Source of the DNA: Candidatus Hodarchaeota archaeon
GTDB taxonomy: Archaea; Asgardarchaeota; Lokiarchaeia; Sigyniarchaeales; SOKP01
NCBI GenBank assembly: GCA_048887225.1
Contig: JBHLJY010000020.1
Location: 1-44,034 of the forward strand
DNA length: 44,034 bases
Reading direction: 5' to 3'
Shown: positions 8,320 to 37,177 of the stretch, in pieces
Layout of the letters: each line of letters opens with the position of its first letter
How positions within the stretch are numbered: the stretch's first letter is position 1
Notes under the pieces: generated by a model
Database searches by the model: none
What the model was told of the DNA's origin: nothing
The model's input: the letters and a program-made list of their open reading frames with translations, nothing else
Translations under genes and position numbers: made by a program

Positions 8320-8961
8320 TTATAATTTGACAATGTCTAATTGCTCCAATTTTTTTAAAATCTCTTTTATTTCATATCGATTTTTCTCAGGGTACATCCT
8401 AGAGATTTTAAGTGGAGAATTGTTACCATCACATTGTAAAGCAACTTTAAGATCAAATTCAGATATAATTCCTGCAGTCAGAACTTTTTCTAATACATTT
8501 TTAGCAACTAATACCTTAGGAAATACTTCAGCAATTCTTCCTCCTAACATCAAATTTTCTACATCAACGATAAAAGTTTGAAATCTCTTTTTTTCGGTCG
8601 TTTCTCTAAATAATTTCAGATCCGAATGGTGCTTTTTCCAAAATCTATGGCTTATTTTATGTAATGCTATTTTAATTTGCTTAATATCATCATCTGCATC
8701 TGAAATTGAACAAAATAATACTCTTGATTGAGGATGATAAAAGATTACATATATAGAGTCTTCAGATTCCAAAACTTTAGTGATATCATTTATATTTTTT
8801 CCTTTAGCTTTTAGTTTTTGAACACTTTTAATAGTTCGATTAACAACCTTAAAGAAACCGGGAAAAGGATTATTCTTAATTTTATTCTGGAATTCCTTAA
8901 AAGAAACTTCCAATAATGATATCCCACTAGTCCCATCGATAAAAAAAATTCTATATATCAA
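8320..8961 (-). CDS. Longin-like domain plus C-terminal winged-helix protein
   Basis: Longin-type beta-beta-alpha-beta-beta-beta-alpha-alpha pattern (IFFIDGTSGISLL...VLFCSISDADDD...LHKISHRF). C-terminal VALQCDGNNSPLKIS...EILKKLEQLDIVKL is winged-helix-like. TTG start. Confidence 0.7.
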   Translation of the reverse strand: MIYRIFFIDGTSGISLLEVSFKEFQNKIKNNPFPGFFKVVNRTIKSVQKLKAKGKNINDITKVLESEDSIYVIFYHPQSRVLFCSISDADDDIKQIKIALHKISHRFWKKHHSDLKLFRETTEKKRFQTFIVDVENLMLGGRIAEVFPKVLVAKNVLEKVLTAGIISEFDLKVALQCDGNNSPLKISRMYPEKNRYEIKEILKKLEQLDIVKL

Positions 8962-9057: not shown

Positions 9058-10482
9058 TTAAATATATGTACTAATCAGATCTACAAGAGTTTTTGAAAAA
9101 TCTGGTAGGTGTTGATCAATTATCTCTATACCTAGATATTCTTCTATAAAAAGAAGTAAATATAGATTATATTTATCAACTTTAATTCTTTTAAATATTA
9201 CATTTTTAGTTTCTGTAGTGATACCTGAAGATACTATAAAATCTTCTTTTAATAATTTAAATTCTTTAAATGTTTTATACAAAGTTTGAAAGTGTGGAGC
9301 AGATATCTCGAATACTTTTCTAGAAATCTCATTTTTGGAATAATTAGATAATATAATACCATTTTCATTTAAAAGCAGTAGCGCATCAGAATTCGTTTTA
9401 TTGGCAAAGAATTTTAATTGCTTTCTAAAGAATTCACGATTCGGGGAAAGCTGTGAAAGCCCGAATGAATATGCAGAAATTAAACTCCAATAATCGAAAA
9501 TACTAGTACGGAAAATTTTCACGAAGAATTTATCTGAATTTCTATTAATCTCTTTAGTTGCGTGTTGCGCATTTTTATTAATATCTTCTGAATCTTTTAA
9601 GTCTGGGTCAAATTTATTTAAACAAACCACGATTGGTGGGAATTCATCCAATTCTTTTAGCGATTTAATTATCCTAATGAAAAGGTTCAAAGATTCATCT
9701 AATCTCTCTTTTGAATCTTGAATATCAATAACATAAAATAATAAATCAATATTGTAAAGATAATATTTACTCTGTTCAAGATACTTTTCTCTATATTTTT
9801 TTTGTCCACCTAAGTCCCAAATTGTCATTTGAGAGTTTTGTTCGTCAAAAACTTTCTCTTCAGATCTTTCTACTCCTTTCGTGGGTAGTGTCTTTATAAT
9901 TTCAGAATATTTCTTTTTGACTGCGAGGAGAAAACTTGTCTTTCCAGCTCTATCTAAGCCAGTATATACTATTTTTATTTTTCTTTTTGAAGATAAAGGA
10001 TCTTTTAAATCTCTACAAAAATCAATCAATTGTTTTCTTATTTCATCAATGACACTTTTATATTCATCTTCAACATTCAGCTGTGTTGCGTGCTGTACTT
10101 TTGTAGCTGCTTTATCAATTAAAACTCTTAAATATTTCATATTCTCGTGGAAAAAACTTTTATTATCATCTTCAATTAACACTGTTATAGTAGCTGCTTT
10201 AGCTTGCCCTCGAGCTTTTTCATCCGCTATAAGAAAAAAATAAGTTAATCCACTTAATTTTAAATCTGGAAAAGGTAATATACCAAAATAATTAATATTT
10301 AAGTCCTCCCCATCTTGATATGTTTCATCTCCCATAAGTAAACTAATCGTTTTCATTGCTATTAAAAGACGGGCGTTTTCTTCCATATCGTCGGGCCAAT
10401 ATATTTTAGGTGTAGGCCCCTCCTCATCAAAAATACTTAAGACGATAGATTTGATTATTTGGCCTTTTTCCTGTTCTGTCAT
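9058..10482 (-). CDS. Longin/uDENN - Rag/Arf-like small GTPase - roadblock-like C-terminal domain fusion
   Basis: G1 GLDRAGKTS, G2 PTKG, G3 WDLGGQ, G4 NKFD, G5 TSI. Rag-like junction RTSIFD...QLSPN...LKFFA. N-terminal FDEEGPTP and IADEKARG motifs. Confidence 0.88.
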   Translation of the reverse strand: MTEQEKGQIIKSIVLSIFDEEGPTPKIYWPDDMEENARLLIAMKTISLLMGDETYQDGEDLNINYFGILPFPDLKLSGLTYFFLIADEKARGQAKAATITVLIEDDNKSFFHENMKYLRVLIDKAATKVQHATQLNVEDEYKSVIDEIRKQLIDFCRDLKDPLSSKRKIKIVYTGLDRAGKTSFLLAVKKKYSEIIKTLPTKGVERSEEKVFDEQNSQMTIWDLGGQKKYREKYLEQSKYYLYNIDLLFYVIDIQDSKERLDESLNLFIRIIKSLKELDEFPPIVVCLNKFDPDLKDSEDINKNAQHATKEINRNSDKFFVKIFRTSIFDYWSLISAYSFGLSQLSPNREFFRKQLKFFANKTNSDALLLLNENGIILSNYSKNEISRKVFEISAPHFQTLYKTFKEFKLLKEDFIVSSGITTETKNVIFKRIKVDKYNLYLLLFIEEYLGIEIIDQHLPDFSKTLVDLISTYI

Positions 10483-15701: not shown

Positions 15702-16655
15702 CTATCCTTTATTTAAGATTTCTCTTAATAATTTTACAAATGTAAGATATTCTTCATTATTAATCTCAGGATCTTCTCTAATTACTAATATATAATAGGA
15801 AGGACCGTCTCTACCTACTTCAAACCGAGTAAATAGAAAATATCGTCCATACCGATGAATTATCATCTTTTCTTCTGGATTTACTGCTGAAACTTCAGAA
15901 TATTGGAAACTCTCGTTTAGACTTAAGAAATGTGCTGTAGATTGGTTTAAAATATCTTTTGTAACATTGTTCTTGTAGTAGCTGCCGACTATTAACGAAT
16001 TATCGTCGATGAGTTCTATACCATCTGCCTTAGATTTAATAGCAAAATCTTCCATAGTTTTTTGAATCAAATTTGCCTTAGGGTATAATTTTAAAAAGAT
16101 CTCAGAAATCACAGTCATAATCGATGATAAATCGTAGATGGATGTTCTATGGAAGAATAATTTTTTATAATCAAGTAATTCTTTTATTTTTACCTGTAAA
16201 CTTAATAAGAAATTATCTAAATCATCATCAGGAATTAAAGTCGGATCAACTTTATGAAAAAAGATATAAATAGGCGGTTCAATTTCGAGGGAATTAAATT
16301 GTATTACAACATCCTTTAAATAAGATAAAGATTCTGGAATCCGATCTTTATGTTGGGCATCTATGACATAGATGGCAATTTCGGTATTGTCGAAGTATTT
16401 ACCTGGATTTTTTAAATAAGAAATCCGATAGGAGATTTGCCCTCCGAGATCCCATTCAGCAATGTTACGACCAAGATATTTAAAGATTCTCCGTTGAGCT
16501 CCTCGAGAAGGTTCAATATTAGCAATTTTTGAAAACTCTCTCTGAAGTGCTAATATAATTGAGGTTTTTCCAGCATTATCTAAGCCTGTAAAAAGAATTT
16601 TCTGAATTTCGGTGCTTTCTTCTTTTAAATATTCAATATAACTTGAATATGCCAT
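15702..16655 (-). CDS. Rag/Gtr-like small GTPase with C-terminal roadblock-like domain
   Basis: GLDNAGKTS, WDLGGQ, Rag-type HKVD, RTSIYD, then LYPKANLIQKTMEDFAIKSKADGIELID. Confidence 0.88.
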   Translation of the reverse strand: MAYSSYIEYLKEESTEIQKILFTGLDNAGKTSIILALQREFSKIANIEPSRGAQRRIFKYLGRNIAEWDLGGQISYRISYLKNPGKYFDNTEIAIYVIDAQHKDRIPESLSYLKDVVIQFNSLEIEPPIYIFFHKVDPTLIPDDDLDNFLLSLQVKIKELLDYKKLFFHRTSIYDLSSIMTVISEIFLKLYPKANLIQKTMEDFAIKSKADGIELIDDNSLIVGSYYKNNVTKDILNQSTAHFLSLNESFQYSEVSAVNPEEKMIIHRYGRYFLFTRFEVGRDGPSYYILVIREDPEINNEEYLTFVKLLREILNKG

Positions 16656-16733: not shown

Positions 16734-18101
16734 CTAGAACTTTTGAATTAAAAAATCTTTGAAATCCTTATACTCGTTAATTTCAACTGGATTCGGGTAT
16801 TCGTTTCTATTTTGAATATTTTTTAGAGATATCGGCATTTTGGGAGAAGTGTTGATTAACGAAATTATCTCATCTGGAAATTTAGCTGGATCAGCAGTTT
16901 CTAATGTAATAGATTTATATTTATTATCTTGTGGATATGTAGTGCGATAGATTTGGAGCGCTGCCCACCCAACTGCCCCATGTGGTTCAATAATTTTTTT
17001 ATAATTTTTATAGAAACTCAGGATTGTCTCTCTGGTAAGATCGTCATTTATAGAATAAGAACAAATATTTTTTTTAATCTCTTTCAGATTTGGATCTTTA
17101 TGCATAATTCCATTTTCATCAATCATGCCTCCATATAAATCAATTAGTCTTGCCAAATTTGATGGATGGCCAACATTCATAGCATTTGAAATACATTTTT
17201 TAGAAGGTTCAACTTTTTTGTAAATTCCTGTCTTTAGATATTTTGGAAATTCGTCATTCTCGTTAACTGCTGATATGAATTTTCTTACGGGAAGCCCCAT
17301 TTTAAATGCTATTAAACCTCCCATTAAATTTCCAAAATTTCCCGAAGGAACTGAAAAAATGACTTCTTCACCTTGTTCCTCCACAATTTGCGAATAGCTC
17401 CAGAAATAATAAAGTGACTGAGGCAATAATCTACCGATATTTATTGAATTTGCTGAAGACAAGTTAAGATATTTTAAATCTGGGTCAGCAAAAGCAGTTT
17501 TTACTAACTTTTGGCAGTCGTCAAATTTTCCATTTATTCCTATGGCATTTACATTTTTTCCTAGCGTTGTCATCTGTTTCTTCTGAAGATCACTAATCTC
17601 ATCTTTAGGAAAAAGTACAACAACTTTAATTCTTGACATTTCGTACATAGCTTGAGCGACAGCTCCACCAGTATCTCCAGAGGTTGCTGTTAAAATTAAG
17701 ACATTTTTTTTTTCTTGAGCTAAGAAGTATTCCATTATTCTTGCCAATGTTCTTGCTCCTATATCTTTAAAACTACATGTAGGTCCTTGATCTAAATAAC
17801 ATATATAATCGTTTTTTTCTATTTTTTCAACTGGAACCTTAAAGTTCAGAGCACTTGATATAATTTTTTTAAGATCATTTTCTGGAATAAACTTCCCAAT
17901 AATTTGTGATAATACAATAAATCCGATTTCGTTTAGTTCCAAATTTTTAAAAGAAAATATTTGATCTTGATCCAATTTAGGTATTTCATTTAACATGTAA
18001 AGACCTTTATCGAAGGCTAACCCATTGATAATTGCCGTCTTAAAGTCTGCATTTGGAGTACTATAATTAGTTGAGTGATATTTTATACTTTGTTCATTCA
18101 T
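16734..18101 (-). CDS. thrC: Threonine synthase
   Basis: GPTCSFKDIG (PLP lysine), ATSGDTG, SANSINIGRLLPQ, VPSGNFGN. Confidence 0.95.
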   Translation of the reverse strand: MNEQSIKYHSTNYSTPNADFKTAIINGLAFDKGLYMLNEIPKLDQDQIFSFKNLELNEIGFIVLSQIIGKFIPENDLKKIISSALNFKVPVEKIEKNDYICYLDQGPTCSFKDIGARTLARIMEYFLAQEKKNVLILTATSGDTGGAVAQAMYEMSRIKVVVLFPKDEISDLQKKQMTTLGKNVNAIGINGKFDDCQKLVKTAFADPDLKYLNLSSANSINIGRLLPQSLYYFWSYSQIVEEQGEEVIFSVPSGNFGNLMGGLIAFKMGLPVRKFISAVNENDEFPKYLKTGIYKKVEPSKKCISNAMNVGHPSNLARLIDLYGGMIDENGIMHKDPNLKEIKKNICSYSINDDLTRETILSFYKNYKKIIEPHGAVGWAALQIYRTTYPQDNKYKSITLETADPAKFPDEIISLINTSPKMPISLKNIQNRNEYPNPVEINEYKDFKDFLIQKF

Positions 18102-18145
18102 AACACTTCTATAATTGTTTAATTCTTTCTACTATAATTAGTCAA

Positions 18146-18403
18146 TTAAAACTCAAAACCTTTTCCAAAAAATTTAGTAATCTCAAAATAAAGCTCAATT
18201 TCCCGACCATCTTCTAATTTTAATTCTAATTTATCGTATAATTTATTGTTATGCTCGAGCAAGCTTTGACGAATTAATTCGCAATTTCCAAATCTTTTTC
18301 TTACTTCGATATATTCTTGCTTAATTCCTTCGGTATTATTACAATCAGATATAATTATCGCTTTTTTAAAAGAGGACCCATCTCCTCCACTGATAACAAC
18401 CAT
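18146..18403 (-). CDS. Small conserved hypothetical protein
   Basis: 85 aa, tightly co-oriented with its neighbours; GGDGSS...YFEITKFFG. Confidence 0.7.
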   Translation of the reverse strand: MVVISGGDGSSFKKAIIISDCNNTEGIKQEYIEVRKRFGNCELIRQSLLEHNNKLYDKLELKLEDGREIELYFEITKFFGKGFEF

Positions 18404-18425
18404 ATTAACTATATTTCTTTAGTCA

Positions 18426-18950
18426 TTAAAATCCTTTTAATAATTCATTAATTTTATCAATTGCCTCTTGAGGCGTTTTAACTCCATGAATTACATCACT
18501 TCTTCTATCATCAATTCTTTGATTTGCAATTTTCGAAGACCACCCTTCAACGCTTGATAAAGCAATAATTGGTTTTTCGTAAATCCAAGCAAAACAAATC
18601 TCTGACAACGTTCCAGCTTTACCCGCAATTGCCACGCACGCATCGCCACTAAGTACAACGACAACATTCCTAGCTTGTGAGAATGGAACTGGAATTACTA
18701 TATCTACATACTTATTTGCTGCTGTTTTATCTTCATGTGGAATGATTCCGATTGTCAAACCATTCTCTTCTTTAGCCCCTTTACACACAGCTTCCATAAC
18801 TCCAGAGAGTCCACCACAGGAAATAACATAGTCATTTTTCGCAAGTAATCTTCCAAGTTCAACAGTTAACTTTTCAGTTTCTTTATCTATTTCACTCGCA
18901 CCAATAACAGAGATAATACCTTTATATTCTTTTTTAAAATCAAATTTCAC
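18426..18950 (-). CDS. LOG/TIGR00725-family Rossmann-fold protein
   Basis: ISVIGA, CGGLSGVMEAVCKGA, ARNVVVV, GKAGTLSEI. Confidence 0.9.
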   Translation of the reverse strand: MKFDFKKEYKGIISVIGASEIDKETEKLTVELGRLLAKNDYVISCGGLSGVMEAVCKGAKEENGLTIGIIPHEDKTAANKYVDIVIPVPFSQARNVVVVLSGDACVAIAGKAGTLSEICFAWIYEKPIIALSSVEGWSSKIANQRIDDRRSDVIHGVKTPQEAIDKINELLKGF

Positions 18951-19017
18951 TCTCTTGGATCCTCTTGATTTTAAATAACGCTATAATTATTTTTAATAAT
19001 TAAAAATCAATTCGAAA

Positions 19018-20034
19018 TTATTCTCTGTGGCTGGTTTTTTTCACAATATCAATTACATCGTTTAATATTGCAGATGCAGCTTCAAATCCACCAGCACCCC
19101 GTCCTATTAAAACTATAGGTCCCGCATATTTTGTCGTTAATTCAATTACATTTAATGTTCCACTTATATTCAATGGCGAATCTCTTTCGATTAACCGCGG
19201 CTCCACGATTAATTCGTCGTCCTCAACTATAGCTAAATGTTTAATTGATAGTCTATCTGCTTTTGCTAACTCTATTGCTTGCGGTGTTACTTTTGTAATT
19301 CCTTTAATTTTAACATCTTTAACTGTTTTTGTCCATCCAAGCAATTCATTCGCTAATATGACCAATTTTCCAGCAGCATCGAATCCCTCAATGTCGAGAG
19401 TTGGATCAGCTTCTGCGATTCCTAATTCTTGAGCTTCTTTTAAAGCTGTGGAAAAAGGTATCCCTTCAGCAGTCATTCGGCTTAGGATATAATTACACGT
19501 TCCATTTAATATCGCTTTAATACGAATAATTTGATTTCCGATAAGGCATTCCGCCACTGACAGCGCGGGAACGACACTCGCAACTGAAGCTTCATATTTG
19601 ATGAAGCAATTATTTTTTTTCGCTAAATCTTTAATTTTTTTATATTGTAAATAAAATGGTCCCTTATTTGAAGAAACTACACTGATTCCATTGTTTAAAG
19701 CCTTAATAATATGTGATAACGCAGGTTCTCCTGTTTTAGGGTTTGTAGGAGTTGCTTCAACACAGATATTTAAATCCAACTTATTAAATAAATCTGCGGA
19801 AGGAGCAACATCTTTGTTCCAAAATCGAAGCTCTCTAAAGTTTTCTCCTTTACCTAGAAGCTCTTCTAGATTGATTCCTTCTTCATTTATTAATGCACCA
19901 TCATATTCGAAAATAGCAACAATATCTAAGTTAATATTAAATTTATCCTTGAGAATGCTTTTTTTCTCTTTTAATAACTGGAGAAAACTAGTCCCAACAT
20001 GACCTTTTCCAATTAAACCAATATTTACATCCAT
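19018..20034 (-). CDS. hom: Homoserine dehydrogenase
   Basis: GKGHVG, SNKGP, ILNGTCNYIL, AEADPTLDIEGFDAAGK, GRGAG. Confidence 0.95.
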   Translation of the reverse strand: MDVNIGLIGKGHVGTSFLQLLKEKKSILKDKFNINLDIVAIFEYDGALINEEGINLEELLGKGENFRELRFWNKDVAPSADLFNKLDLNICVEATPTNPKTGEPALSHIIKALNNGISVVSSNKGPFYLQYKKIKDLAKKNNCFIKYEASVASVVPALSVAECLIGNQIIRIKAILNGTCNYILSRMTAEGIPFSTALKEAQELGIAEADPTLDIEGFDAAGKLVILANELLGWTKTVKDVKIKGITKVTPQAIELAKADRLSIKHLAIVEDDELIVEPRLIERDSPLNISGTLNVIELTTKYAGPIVLIGRGAGGFEAASAILNDVIDIVKKTSHRE

Positions 20035-20151
20035 TTTATATATAAAATAAATTAGAATATTACATAAAAATTTATAATACTATAAAACTTTAATAGAAAA
20101 TTGAGATTAGAATCTAGATTAAAAGGATTACTATCTATAAATATATAGTTT

Positions 20152-20304
20152 TTATAAGTTTCCGACTGTTGAATCTGGATTAAATCGAAAATATTCGGGA
20201 ATTCTTTTACCGCATTCTGGACAAAATGTTAAGCCCTCATCAATTATTTGATTACATTCAGGACATTTAATTTTTCCATCAGGAATTTTACTCTTTTTCG
20301 GCAT
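20152..20304 (-). CDS. Small zinc-ribbon protein (50 aa)
   Basis: Hand translation MPKKSKIPDGKIKCPECNQIIDEGLTFCPECGKRIPEYFRFNPDSTVGNL; below the ORF track length cutoff. Confidence 0.8.
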   Translation of the reverse strand: MPKKSKIPDGKIKCPECNQIIDEGLTFCPECGKRIPEYFRFNPDSTVGNL

Positions 20305-20335
20305 AATTCTTTTAAAAATATTTCTCTTTAATCTC

Positions 20336-20827
20336 TTAACCTCTGATTAAAGACAAATCTTTTTCTTCACATATTTTATTCAGTTCTTTAATCAATTCTT
20401 TTTCAGTTATAGATTCTGGAATTTCTAATTTCAATTTAACATTACTAATTTCCTCAAGTTCAGTAAATTTTGCTTGTAATTCCAAAGTTTTAACACCTTT
20501 AACGGCTAATCTTTTTATAGTATCCAATACATCTGTATCGAAGACGTGCCCGCTTAATAAGATAATCAAGCTGGTTTGTTTAGCGCCAAGAGTAATATTA
20601 TCAATTGGTATATTCTTTTCACTAAGTTCATTTTGTATATTTTCTAGACTTCTCTCTCTGATTTCTTCACTTAACTCAAAAGTAACTTCCACAGGAATCA
20701 TATTATTTATTTTTTTATCGTGGTAGTGGAGGATAGAATAGATATTACCTCCATTATTTGAAATCGGTTCAATCAACTGGATTAATGTTCCTGGATGGTC
20801 AGGTAATCGTACTTCTAAGCTTATCAT
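20336..20827 (-). CDS. Tandem ACT-domain protein, allosteric regulator of homoserine dehydrogenase (COG2061-like)
   Basis: LPDHPGTLIQLIEPISNNGGNIYSILH...LSGHVFDTDVLDTI; lies just upstream of hom. Confidence 0.88.
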   Translation of the reverse strand: MISLEVRLPDHPGTLIQLIEPISNNGGNIYSILHYHDKKINNMIPVEVTFELSEEIRERSLENIQNELSEKNIPIDNITLGAKQTSLIILLSGHVFDTDVLDTIKRLAVKGVKTLELQAKFTELEEISNVKLKLEIPESITEKELIKELNKICEEKDLSLIRG

Positions 20828-20841
20828 CTCTCATAAACCTA

Positions 20842-21798
20842 TTAAAATTTAATAACATCTATGGTTTCTTTACTATCATTTATTTTTAGATTTTTTTGCT
20901 TAATAATTTTTCCTATTACATTCGCTTCTATTCCGTGATTTTTGAAAATATTAATAATTTCGTTACAATTTTCATTAGGAGCTGTTAAAATAAAAGATGT
21001 GGTTAAATACATTTTGATATACATTTCTAAAGTATAATTAAGCTCAGATAACACGGGAGGAATAATAATTTTATTTACATTTACATTTGCTCCAACATTA
21101 GAATATTTTGTTAATTGAAGCATAGTACCAAAAATTCCTCCATTGGATACATCTTTTGAAGAATTAGCAAGGTGCTTTTCAGCTATGATATTCATAGCTT
21201 TTCTTTTTTCAATTACTTCTTCAGAACTCTTAAAAGTAGTTGTATCGAAATATAATTTACTAGCTTTAGCGATTCTTCCGTCAAAATCAACCGCTAAAAT
21301 TATGTTATCATCAACTTGAGCATTCCCAGCAGAAATATAATCCTCTTTTTTAATCTCTCCGATCATTGTGGAGCTAAGCTCATAGCTTGGACTGCGTGAA
21401 TTAGTATGACCTCTAATTATTGGTACTTGAAACTTTTTAGAAGCTTCACAGATACCTTCTAAGATATTATTGCATGTATTAACATCTCTCACAGATATAA
21501 TTATAGTGGCAGCAATTGGGATGCCTCCACATGCATAAATATCATCAACACTAACTAAAATTGAGCTAAAACCCGCTCCAAAAGGAAAATTCTCGATGAA
21601 GTCGGTTTTTATTCGGTCTGTAGTGATTAGTATATATTTATCATCATTCTTTATTGCTGCTGAATCTTCGCCGATATCGAAACAAATTCTAGCGCTTTTA
21701 AATGTGTTTTTATCTATATATTGAATTATAGGACTAATTTCGATTTTCTCAATAATATTTTTATTATTCCTAATACTTTCTGCGATAAACTTTAACAT
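20842..21798 (-). CDS. AIR synthase/selenophosphate synthetase-related (PurM superfamily, COG2144-like) protein
   Basis: GEDSAAI, VSVDDIYACGGIP, RGHT, SKDVSNGGIFGT. Confidence 0.85.
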   Translation of the reverse strand: MLKFIAESIRNNKNIIEKIEISPIIQYIDKNTFKSARICFDIGEDSAAIKNDDKYILITTDRIKTDFIENFPFGAGFSSILVSVDDIYACGGIPIAATIIISVRDVNTCNNILEGICEASKKFQVPIIRGHTNSRSPSYELSSTMIGEIKKEDYISAGNAQVDDNIILAVDFDGRIAKASKLYFDTTTFKSSEEVIEKRKAMNIIAEKHLANSSKDVSNGGIFGTMLQLTKYSNVGANVNVNKIIIPPVLSELNYTLEMYIKMYLTTSFILTAPNENCNEIINIFKNHGIEANVIGKIIKQKNLKINDSKETIDVIKF

Positions 21799-21898: not shown

Positions 21899-23416
21899 AT
21901 GGAAAAATTACTTGAAACTTCAGTTGTAATAAAGGGGCTCGTATTCAGCGCTCAAGACATCTACGGACCAACCGCAATCTATCAATTCCCAGCCCCCGTA
22001 GATGAGGACGAAGCCAAAGCATTAAAAAAAGAAAATATAATTAAATTAACACATCGGGATTATATCCAAATCTCAATTAAGAATCTAAGCATGATAATTA
22101 GTGATTTAACTTATAAAGATTATAAAACTGATTACCTAAATTTTCCTTACTTCGGTATCATACCTTATCCAGATTTTCGGCTCACTTCTCTTACATTTTA
22201 TCATTTTATTGAAGCAAATTTTTTAGAGAAACCAATTATTTCTGCTTTTTCAATTTTGGTTCATGAAAATCAGAGGTCATTCCTATATAATAATTTAGAT
22301 AGGCTTAAATCTCTAATCATCAGTTTTTTCTATAAATTTGATTCAGAAATCGAGTATGGCTACAAGCAAATTCACGAAATGGAACCTATTTTTTGTGATC
22401 TACTGCAAAGGCTTATTGAAATTGAGAAGAAACCTTATTCGTCAATCACTAGTAAAACTAAAACCAAGCTTCTCCTCTTAGGCACGGAAAATAGTGGTAA
22501 AACCTCCTTCCTATATTCTGTGACTAAAAAATTTTCAAAGCTCATCGGGCTTAGTCCTACTGCGGGAGCAGAAATAAAATCAATAGAAGCGTTAGGTTCA
22601 TCGATCTTTATCTGGGATTTAGGAGGGCAATCAGGACTGAGGGAAAAATATCTTAATAAAGCGGAAATTTATCTTTATGACGCGGATTTACTTTTTTACT
22701 TTATAGATGTTAAAAATAAAAGTGGATTTGAAGAAAGCCTAGAATACCTTCAAAATATATTAATACAATTAAAACGATTTAATCAGAATCCACCAATAGT
22801 TTACATATTTTCAAAAGGAGATCCAGATATTTTAAAATCTAAAGAAATTATAGAAAATATAAATTATCTTCAATCTCGATTGTCAAAAATCGTTCCTGAA
22901 ACTGTTCCAGAAATATTTGTTACGAGTATCTTTTCAATTTTTAGTATACTTCGGGCTTTCTCTTCGGGGATCTCCAAACTTAGCCCTAATAAAGAATTAA
23001 TTAATCTTAATCTGAAAAATTTCTCTACTCGTACAGGAATTTATTTATCGCTTTTATTAAATAATGAGGGATTAGTTCTGGCTGATTATTACAGTCCTGA
23101 AGCATTGATAATAACAGATATTCCGAAAAAAGAAGAATTAAGTAATGATGATAATTTACGCAATATTTTTGAGATAACTGCACCTCAATTTGCTATGTTA
23201 TATAAAATATTTTCAAAATTTAAAGCGTTGCAAAAAGAAGAGGCTATTTTTAAGATTGCTAATTCTGTAATTCTCTTAAAAAAAACACAAATCGCAGATT
23301 TTGATATGTTTATTTTGTTTTTAATGGATGAAGAAGGCAAGAAAGAAAGAATAAATGAATTAATACCTGATTTTTTGTATCGCACTAGTGATTTGCTTTT
23401 AAGATATATATCTTAA
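21899..23416 (+). CDS. Longin/uDENN - Rag-like small GTPase - roadblock-like fusion (paralogue of 9058-10482)
   Basis: GTENSGKTS, PTAG, WDLGGQ, atypical G4 SKGD, TSI. Shares FGI(L/I)P(F/Y)PD, LSPN(R/K)E and FEI(S/T)AP(H/Q)FxxLYKxF with the 474-aa protein. Confidence 0.87.
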   Translation: MEKLLETSVVIKGLVFSAQDIYGPTAIYQFPAPVDEDEAKALKKENIIKLTHRDYIQISIKNLSMIISDLTYKDYKTDYLNFPYFGIIPYPDFRLTSLTFYHFIEANFLEKPIISAFSILVHENQRSFLYNNLDRLKSLIISFFYKFDSEIEYGYKQIHEMEPIFCDLLQRLIEIEKKPYSSITSKTKTKLLLLGTENSGKTSFLYSVTKKFSKLIGLSPTAGAEIKSIEALGSSIFIWDLGGQSGLREKYLNKAEIYLYDADLLFYFIDVKNKSGFEESLEYLQNILIQLKRFNQNPPIVYIFSKGDPDILKSKEIIENINYLQSRLSKIVPETVPEIFVTSIFSIFSILRAFSSGISKLSPNKELINLNLKNFSTRTGIYLSLLLNNEGLVLADYYSPEALIITDIPKKEELSNDDNLRNIFEITAPQFAMLYKIFSKFKALQKEEAIFKIANSVILLKKTQIADFDMFILFLMDEEGKKERINELIPDFLYRTSDLLLRYIS

Positions 23417-36148: not shown

Positions 36149-37177
36149 ATGGAAGAAAATTTAATTACTGGGATTATTTATAGTGAAATTGATGATACTC
36201 TAGGACCAAATCCTATTTTATGGATTCCTTCAAATATTCCTGAAGATATTAAAATGAATATCTGCATAAAAACTAGTACTCTTCTCGCAGCCGATAAAGG
36301 ACATATTCCAGCATCATTAGTAGTGCTTCCATTTCCATCTTTGAATTTAAAGGGAATTACTAAATATATCCAAATAAGAGATGAAACTCAACGAGGGGGC
36401 GTAAAATTTACTATAATTACCCTATTGTTTAAAGAATTCAATGATGTTATTTTTTATAAAGGGATGGAACATTTTGACTCTACATTTAATCATTTTGCCC
36501 AAAAAATTATTAAATTTGAGGAGTTTGGAACGAATAGAGAAAAAATTTATCAAGAAATCGAACACCTTCATACAAACGTTTTAACAATCTTGAAGGATTT
36601 ACGTACAAAAGAATATACAGAAGCTTTTCCTGAAAAGATAATAAAAAAAGAGGAGGCAATAAATTACCAATTTAAGATAATTGTATGTGGCGATCCCATG
36701 GTAGGTAAAACCAGCCTTATCCTTAGATTCACTGAAAATGCGTTTAAAAGGACATATATATCTACTTTGGGTGTCCATGTAAGTGATAGAGTCATACGCT
36801 TTAAAAATTCTAATATTCAACTAGTAATTTGGGACCTCGCTGGACAATCGAAGTTTGATGTGATGAGAACTGCTTTTTATCAGGGTGCGAAAGGAGTTCT
36901 ATTGGTATTTGATCTAACTAATGCTGCTTCTTTTAATAGTATCAAAAACTGGTTTAATGACGTAAAAAAACACACAAATATTCGGGAAAAGCTAATTGGA
37001 TTTATTTTAGGAAATAAATCTGATCTCCATAATGAAAGAGTAGTTACTACAGAACAAGCTTCTAAGGTTGCTAAAGAACTCAGCCTTATCTATTTTGAAA
37101 CTTCAGCATTAACTGGAAATAATGTAGCAAATTCTTTTAAAGAATTAGCAGAAGCATTATATTTGATAAATAAATAG
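36149..37177 (+). CDS. Longin/uDENN - Rab-like small GTPase fusion
   Basis: FKIIVCGDPMVGKTS, YISTLGV, IWDLAGQ, FYQGAKG, LVFDLT, GNKSD, ETSA. N-terminal IDDTLGPNP and IRDETQRGG. Confidence 0.9.
   Translation: MEENLITGIIYSEIDDTLGPNPILWIPSNIPEDIKMNICIKTSTLLAADKGHIPASLVVLPFPSLNLKGITKYIQIRDETQRGGVKFTIITLLFKEFNDVIFYKGMEHFDSTFNHFAQKIIKFEEFGTNREKIYQEIEHLHTNVLTILKDLRTKEYTEAFPEKIIKKEEAINYQFKIIVCGDPMVGKTSLILRFTENAFKRTYISTLGVHVSDRVIRFKNSNIQLVIWDLAGQSKFDVMRTAFYQGAKGVLLVFDLTNAASFNSIKNWFNDVKKHTNIREKLIGFILGNKSDLHNERVVTTEQASKVAKELSLIYFETSALTGNNVANSFKELAEALYLINK

Follow-up and report, generated by a model that had tools for sequence, protein, structure and literature searches.

Does an archaeal protein that joins a folliculin-like longin domain to a Rag-like GTPase contain its own GTPase-activating protein (GAP), and if so, whose GTP would it help to hydrolyse? 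In human cells, the arginine of this type of longin switches Rag GTPases off, and in the 44,034-nucleotide stretch of DNA analysed here (the window; contig JBHLJY010000020.1 of a Lokiarchaeia genome), both halves are found in a single Loki-type Asgard protein (Table 1). A previous sequence-only reading of the locus had proposed that GAP and Rag share one chain, acting in cis or across a dimer, and had seen in this protein a Rosetta stone for the relationship between folliculin (FLCN) and the Rag GTPases.

The gene at 9058-10482 is uninterrupted by stop codons, and the motifs quoted in that reading, including R91, were found in its product. The proposed fusion of the longin to an intact Rag-like GTPase holds, with a roadblock domain in addition, as borne out by Pfam, the structural model and the conserved G motifs. 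Pfam assigns residues 170-387 to Gtr1_RagA (E 9.3e-25), above Arf (E 1.9e-19), and residues 79-145 to Folliculin (E 3.5e-4), and the top fold matches of the full model are LokiRagO, RagA, RagC and Gtr1/2. In the AlphaFold model, the longin strands comprise residues 10-19, 22-29, 65-71, 76-86 and 94-104, helix 3 ends at residue 158 and the G domain begins at residue 169; switch I/II is poorly modelled, with pLDDT < 50 at residues 193-227. The part consisting of the G domain and the roadblock domain matches LokiRagO (PDB 8YL2) with E 1.8e-38. The roadblock domain, starting at around residues 347-349, is modelled as a helix-2 strands-helix-3 strands-helix pattern, and the Foldseek alignment to Rag chains spans ~310 columns. 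The likeness to RagA at the junction of these two domains, pointed out in that reading, is visible in an alignment to the RagA chain of PDB 6WJ2. The G1 (residues 175-182), G2 (T201), G3 (D223-Q227) and G4 (N289-D292) motifs and the switch-II glutamine are intact, and G180-K181, T201, D223, G226, Q227, K290 and D292 are each retained in 120/120 orthologues. At the first G4 position, eukaryotic Rag A-D have histidine, whereas the protein described here has asparagine (N289; 113/120 orthologues); distant orthologues, including that of MK-D1, have histidine. A promoter scan of the locus with a bacterial-type model gave a signal at the level of shuffled sequence.

Table 1. Features of the window that bear on the longin-Rag-like GTPase-roadblock protein.
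Feature	Positions	Strand	Basis or remark
Gene for a longin-like, winged-helix protein that lacks the GP motif; candidate as partner longin	8320..8961	(-)	Atlas longin family match, TM 0.79
Longin-Rag-like GTPase-roadblock gene, paralogue A (arginine-bearing)	9058..10482	(-)	474 aa
C-terminal roadblock domain (Rag CRD-like), residues 347-474	9061..9444	(-)	Model pattern; Foldseek
Rag-like G domain, residues 169-346	9445..9978	(-)	Pfam Gtr1_RagA; PDB matches LokiRagO 8YL2, RagA/RagC
Short linker from longin helix 3 to GTPase strand 1, ~residues 159-168, conserved P162	9979..10008	(-)	
Longin/uDENN domain, FLCN/SMCR8/C9orf72/NPRL2 class, residues 8-160	10003..10461	(-)	AF2 model, structure search, Pfam
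R91 in the beta4-beta5 loop; candidate arginine finger	10210..10212	(-)	Codon CGA; loop position; conservation
F18 to G22-P23, beta1-beta2 loop with GP motif	10414..10431	(-)	Conservation; weak SMCR8 alignment
Rag-roadblock GTPase, LokiRagO (PDB 8YL2) orthologue; candidate trans substrate	15702..16655	(-)	E 1.2e-74 to 8YL2
Sister paralogue B: three domains as in A, with GP motif and intact G1-G3 but arginine loop lost	21899..23416	(+)	Candidate partner or substrate
Arginine longin with Rab-like GTPase, no roadblock	36149..37177	(+)	

The longin domain was predicted in isolation by AF2 (pLDDT 92.7), and the model was searched against 48,161 solved chains, with VIA-align Z as the score. It reached 18.8 for a Loki longin (8YQG), 13.1 for C9orf72 (rmsd 2.9, 148 residues aligned), 12.8 for Lst4, 12.5 for FLCN (rmsd 2.8, 137 residues), 11.5 for an NPRL-type chain, 11.4 for FNIP2, 10.7 for DENND1A and 10.3 for SMCR8. 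The longins of TRAPP, sedlin and SNARE proteins scored Z < 10, beneath the GAP-type longins (Z 10-13), and both Foldseek and the Atlas, which returned FLCN/SMCR8 clusters at TM 0.73-0.75, agree with this class. Sequence identity to FLCN/SMCR8 amounts to 8-12%. The Pfam Folliculin profile (PF11704) matches the N-terminal domain with E 1.1e-4 and 22.5 bits, the curated cut-off being 23.3; among 62 members of the longin family, 26 match this profile, with a best E of 8.9e-7, and one relative (P0194) exceeds the cut-off with 24.5 bits.

R91 is located between strands beta4 (residues 76-86) and beta5 (residues 94-104). An arginine in this loop is a mark of longin and DENN GAPs (bioRxiv 10.64898/2026.01.05.697756; bioRxiv 10.1101/2020.04.16.045708), and it is at this position that FLCN carries R164 and SMCR8 R147 (bioRxiv 10.1101/2020.04.16.045708). 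The equivalence of R91 to these two residues is positional and, given the fold match of the predicted domain and the placement in the beta4-beta5 loop, well supported. F18, G22, P23, R91 and G92 do not vary among 115 orthologues, with the GP motif at the beginning of strand 2, and R91, on whose conservation the sequence-only reading had depended, is retained in 265/265 sequences of at least 38% identity. According to PMC12290439, the GP motif accompanies the arginine finger in GAP longins. F18 would occupy the place of SMCR8 F63 and of FLCN F10, which is required for GAP activity (PMC9473554); this assignment is again positional, with some help from a weak SMCR8 alignment. The match to the SMCR8 GP motif that the sequence-only reading had proposed does appear, but its E value of 0.4 is not significant by itself, and PDB profile searches, for which three longin alignments and the sequence of a single relative served as queries, gave no alignment to FLCN or SMCR8 across the arginine loop. 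Analysis of MI-APC covariation in 265-404 sequences (Neff 64-118) missed the strand pairings and was uninformative. The fold ranking, the position between beta4 and beta5 and the complete retention of R91 nevertheless uphold the earlier claim of a folliculin/SMCR8-class longin with an arginine at the finger position. As a property of the sequences, a conserved loop arginine shows importance, not catalysis, but we consider it probable that R91 is the catalytic finger for some small GTPase. In its action, the 474-residue protein may be folliculin-like, yet it is no folliculin, with a GTPase and a roadblock domain instead of a DENN domain after the longin.

There are at least 120 full-length orthologues with 67-96% identity, and matches at E 1e-60 or better occur in 136/151 genomes of the class. 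With hundreds of full-length orthologues, the fusion is real, and a chance fusion or assembly artefact is ruled out. Among 57 sampled genomes of other orders and classes, no full longin-Rag-roadblock match was found; the matches listed there covered either the G domain and roadblock only or a longin with a Rab-like domain. The Rag fusion appears to be lineage-specific, found solely in the order of Lokiarchaeia to which this genome belongs, and arginine longins without a Rag domain are present in other Asgard classes sampled. Matches of 65-70% identity with Thor, Hod, Odin or bacterial labels were considered as signs of a wider range; they are most likely mislabelled bins, because GTDB-placed genomes outside the order gave no full-length match. 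Three of the loci, labelled actinobacterium or Thorarchaeota (L084, L073 and L083), contain the gene in Lokiarchaeia-like form at 67-69% identity and are probably mislabelled or mis-binned.

A search with the longin alone against 1.84 billion representatives returned 108 matches, which sort into Rag fusions with arginine, Rag fusions without it, Rab-like fusions, roadblock-longins and others. At 50% identity, the Rab-like fusions fall into ~20 clusters, almost all of which have the arginine, and the window holds all three GTPase-fused kinds (at 9058, 21899 and 36149). The arginine is also kept in stand-alone and roadblock-fused longins, whose chains lack a GTPase. Because the same arginine longin has other fusion partners as well, Rab-like GTPases and roadblocks among them, and because the Rag fusion was found only in its own order among the genomes sampled, the image of a Rosetta stone for FLCN and Rag is overstated. 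The sequences point to a general link between longin GAPs and small GTPases in Asgard archaea and not specifically to an ancestor of FLCN-RagC; the longin-Rag fusion is not the ancestor of FLCN.

In a tree of 63 longins with midpoint root only, the arginine-bearing (A) and arginine-less (B) Rag-fused longins are sister clades (99/99). Since the remaining groups of the tree mostly bear the arginine, the simplest reading of these sequences is a duplication followed by arginine loss in paralogue B. Paralogue B retains the GP motif in 118/120 sequences and the G3 motif with its glutamine in 120/120, and it has the RG pair of the loop in 0/120. Its first G4 position is serine (115/120). In family f2, a proline precedes the Gly-Gln of its G3 motif, which we take to be a RagC/D feature. 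Conversely, three full-length or nearly full-length, rare A-type paralogues (L179, L180 (P0132, P0133), P0135) have a well-kept arginine loop and decayed G2/G3 motifs. Their longins are 53-57% identical to that of the query, their G domains 27-38%; they are few and close together on the tree, and two of the three were seen in at least two samples. The G motifs have often decayed in the arginine-less paralogues of two distant families, too. Exceptions in both directions led us to discard the notion that a chain loses its arginine in step with the decay of its GTPase.

Our preferred, if tentative, reading is that the protein is a Rag-like GTPase tethered to the catalytic half of a longin-type GAP that serves the G domain of a partner chain. 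Three observations favour such action in trans: the arginine loop outlives the decay of G2/G3 in the rare A-type paralogues, paralogue B has lost the arginine while keeping G3 and its glutamine throughout, and the stand-alone and roadblock-fused longins retain the arginine without a GTPase in the chain. In known longin GAP structures, two longins present their paired helices to the GTPase switches, and the arginine comes from one of the two (PMC8213707). Both longins are required in FLCN (PMC9473554) and in the C9orf72-SMCR8-containing CSW complex (PMC8213707; bioRxiv 10.1101/2020.04.16.045708), and the SMCR8 longin has no activity by itself (bioRxiv 10.1101/2020.04.16.045708). Given this inactivity and the lack of a cDENN domain here, the 474-residue protein probably needs a partner longin; this could be the longin of a second copy of the protein, that of paralogue B (at 21899) or that of the winged-helix neighbour at 8320. 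A member of the longin family has been crystallised as a dimer, to go by the title of 8YQG. The two paired longins would form a two-helix bowl gripping a GTP-loaded G domain on another polypeptide of the assembly, and R91 would enter at the gamma-phosphate and, together with the switch-II glutamine, accelerate hydrolysis. Like its counterpart in Rag dimers, the roadblock domain may keep the partners in contact, such that the fusion would tether GAP and substrate in one oligomer. Arginine-less paralogues fit poorly as the substrate in the two distant families, since their G motifs are often decayed. Complex prediction with two longin copies, a G domain, GTP and Mg scored 0.01, which is no verdict either way.

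The most elaborate form of this partner-chain reading, a heterodimer of paralogues A and B that folds a module of the FLCN-FNIP plus RagA-RagC type into two genes, is unlikely. Longin A with its arginine would pair with longin B, which is C9orf72-like in having the GP motif and no arginine, roadblock A would pair with roadblock B, and R91 would turn off one of the G domains in the assembly. If true, this heterodimer would provide the first case from archaea of a Rag-like GTPase under the control of an arginine-finger longin GAP.

The alternative that survives best, possible though not probable, holds that R91 is not catalytic and belongs to a conserved loop with a structural role or one in binding a partner, a phosphate or the membrane, the longin being a docking platform or an exchange factor, as reported for most longins. 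The sub-threshold Folliculin score and the low identity to FLCN/SMCR8 are consistent with it, as are the ability of 8YQG and of the whole B clade to fold without the arginine and the fact that the papers found demonstrate GAP function for no Asgard longin. However, an arginine that is dispensable for the fold is invariant in Rag-fused, Rab-fused, roadblock-fused and stand-alone members from several Asgard classes, and it is accompanied by the very GP motif that marks GAP longins (PMC12290439).

Action in cis, with R91 reaching the G domain of its own chain while the switches are steadied by the roadblock domain or by another longin, is rather unlikely. The linker is short and conserved, the three domains of paralogue A are equally conserved (0.73, 0.73 and 0.74), and a pTM of 0.72 for the full-length AlphaFold model gives a hint that the domains are arranged in an ordered way. 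However, only ~10 residues separate longin helix 3 from GTPase strand 1. To judge by the Ras and longin folds, this strand starts on the face opposite the nucleotide, and with so short a linker it looks hard for R91 to reach the nucleotide of its own chain in the FLCN geometry. One longin and a second domain do suffice in monomeric DENN GAPs of the Avl9 family, whose arginine is likewise located between longin strands 4 and 5, but these proteins hold the GTPase switches by a cDENN subdomain (bioRxiv 10.64898/2026.01.05.697756), and the protein described here has none that could stand in for the partner longin. Together with the cupping of the GTPase by two longins (PMC8213707), the inactivity of the lone SMCR8 longin and the persistence of the arginine beside a decayed GTPase, the short linker weakens the proposal of cis action, and "across a dimer" is the likelier half of what the sequence-only reading had suggested. 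Least probable is a GTPase cascade, in which the attached Rag-like domain would localise or gate a longin that acts as a GAP for another class, such as Rab-like or Arf-like GTPases: the same longin is joined to Rab-like GTPases, SMCR8 targets Arf and Rab rather than Rag (PMC8213707; bioRxiv 10.1101/2020.04.16.045708) and the genome holds many further small GTPases, but the Rab fusions already bear their own arginine longin, and the Rag-fused longins form a clade of their own with family-specific invariant residues in helix 1 (S47-G51, Y55-Q56), as expected for a dedicated partner.

Both the longin-Rag-roadblock layout and the Asgard GP/arginine longins are already published. Tran et al. (2024, PMC10933270) describe MK-D1 proteins in which a Rag-like GTPase is flanked by a longin and a roadblock domain, and they model AF2 homodimers of such LGR-type proteins. 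The MK-D1 orthologue by synteny, WP_147663355.1, is labelled LGR in the supplement and has a layout identical to that of the protein at 9058-10482. The supplement further notes that the longin-GTPases of MK-D1 lack a switch-I arginine and may require GAPs, and the paper states that a GAP for Asgard longin-GTPases cannot be matched from gene order; in the searched text of this paper, the LGR longin is not classed as FLCN-type, nor is its arginine mentioned. A second study (Traffic 2025, PMC12290439) describes Asgard "Folliculin/SMCR8 longin domain-containing" proteins with the same GP/arginine arrangement as here, proposes a GAP function and poses the question of ArfR or Rag GTPases as their partners; no GTPase fusion is described in its text. 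Liu et al. (bioRxiv 10.1101/2020.10.19.343400) list NPRL2-like longin fusions and longin-Rag fusions. We found no paper that identifies the LGR longin as an arginine-finger type and hence links the two published observations. The protein resembles FLCN-FNIP2 (RagC/D GAP; 8DHB, 6NZD), C9orf72-SMCR8 (Arf GAP; 7MGE) and NPRL2-NPRL3 (RagA/B GAP) in its longin class, GP motif, beta1-beta2 aromatic residue and beta4-beta5 arginine, but differs from these three systems in its lack of a DENN domain, its fusion to a GTPase and its low identity (8-14%). Its closest solved relatives are LokiRagO (8YL2), LokiRagM (8ZLA, 9M28) and a Loki roadblock-longin (8YQG), for none of which we found a publication; none of them combines all three domains, and 8YQG lacks the arginine. 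The longin-Rag family ties two open questions, the GTPase targets of arginine longins and the GAP of longin-GTPases, to named proteins. If the GAP action is true, the control of Rag-like switches by longin GAPs, central to mTORC1 signalling, would be older than eukaryotes.

The genomic neighbourhood offers candidate partners. The longin-winged-helix gene at 8320, whose product starts at TTG, lies within 3 kb downstream in 71/80 loci, the other nine having short flanks; R80 of its product is less strictly conserved (74 R and 10 K of 89). In MK-D1, LokiRagO is encoded two genes away from the orthologue of 9058-10482, and the gene syntenic to 15702-16655 matches 8YL2 with E 4.5e-221. Another locus (L032:11929-12954) likewise encodes a LokiRagO orthologue; crystallised LokiRagO is homo-tetrameric. 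The block formed by the genes at 8320, 9058, 15702 and 21899 is syntenic in at least two families, but gene order was rejected as proof of partnership and constitutes weak evidence, because the housekeeping genes of the block are equally syntenic. Between the Rag-like genes, the region 16734-21798 (-) contains threonine synthase, SLOG, homoserine dehydrogenase, ACT and AIR-synthase-like genes; several relatives lack the threonine genes at this place, so that the link of these genes to the Rag-like genes is not conserved.

Arginine longins also occur in other settings. Genes of the longin-Rab-like type found at 36149-37177 are present in several copies per genome in the class, and the same genome encodes four more distant GP and RG longins without a P-loop (C10:29464-30435, C4:212057-212515, C11:51403-52659, C28:7876-9015). 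Near the same syntenic block, an 852-codon open frame (L050:1190-3745 (+)) combines a GP/RG longin of another subfamily with a GTPase domain, and a genome of another Asgard class (G185) has three tandem arginine-longin genes without a GTPase (L166:1019-4393 (+)). Further relatives join the arginine longin to a Rab-like GTPase and a TIR domain (P0170) or to a TrmB helix-turn-helix (P0153).
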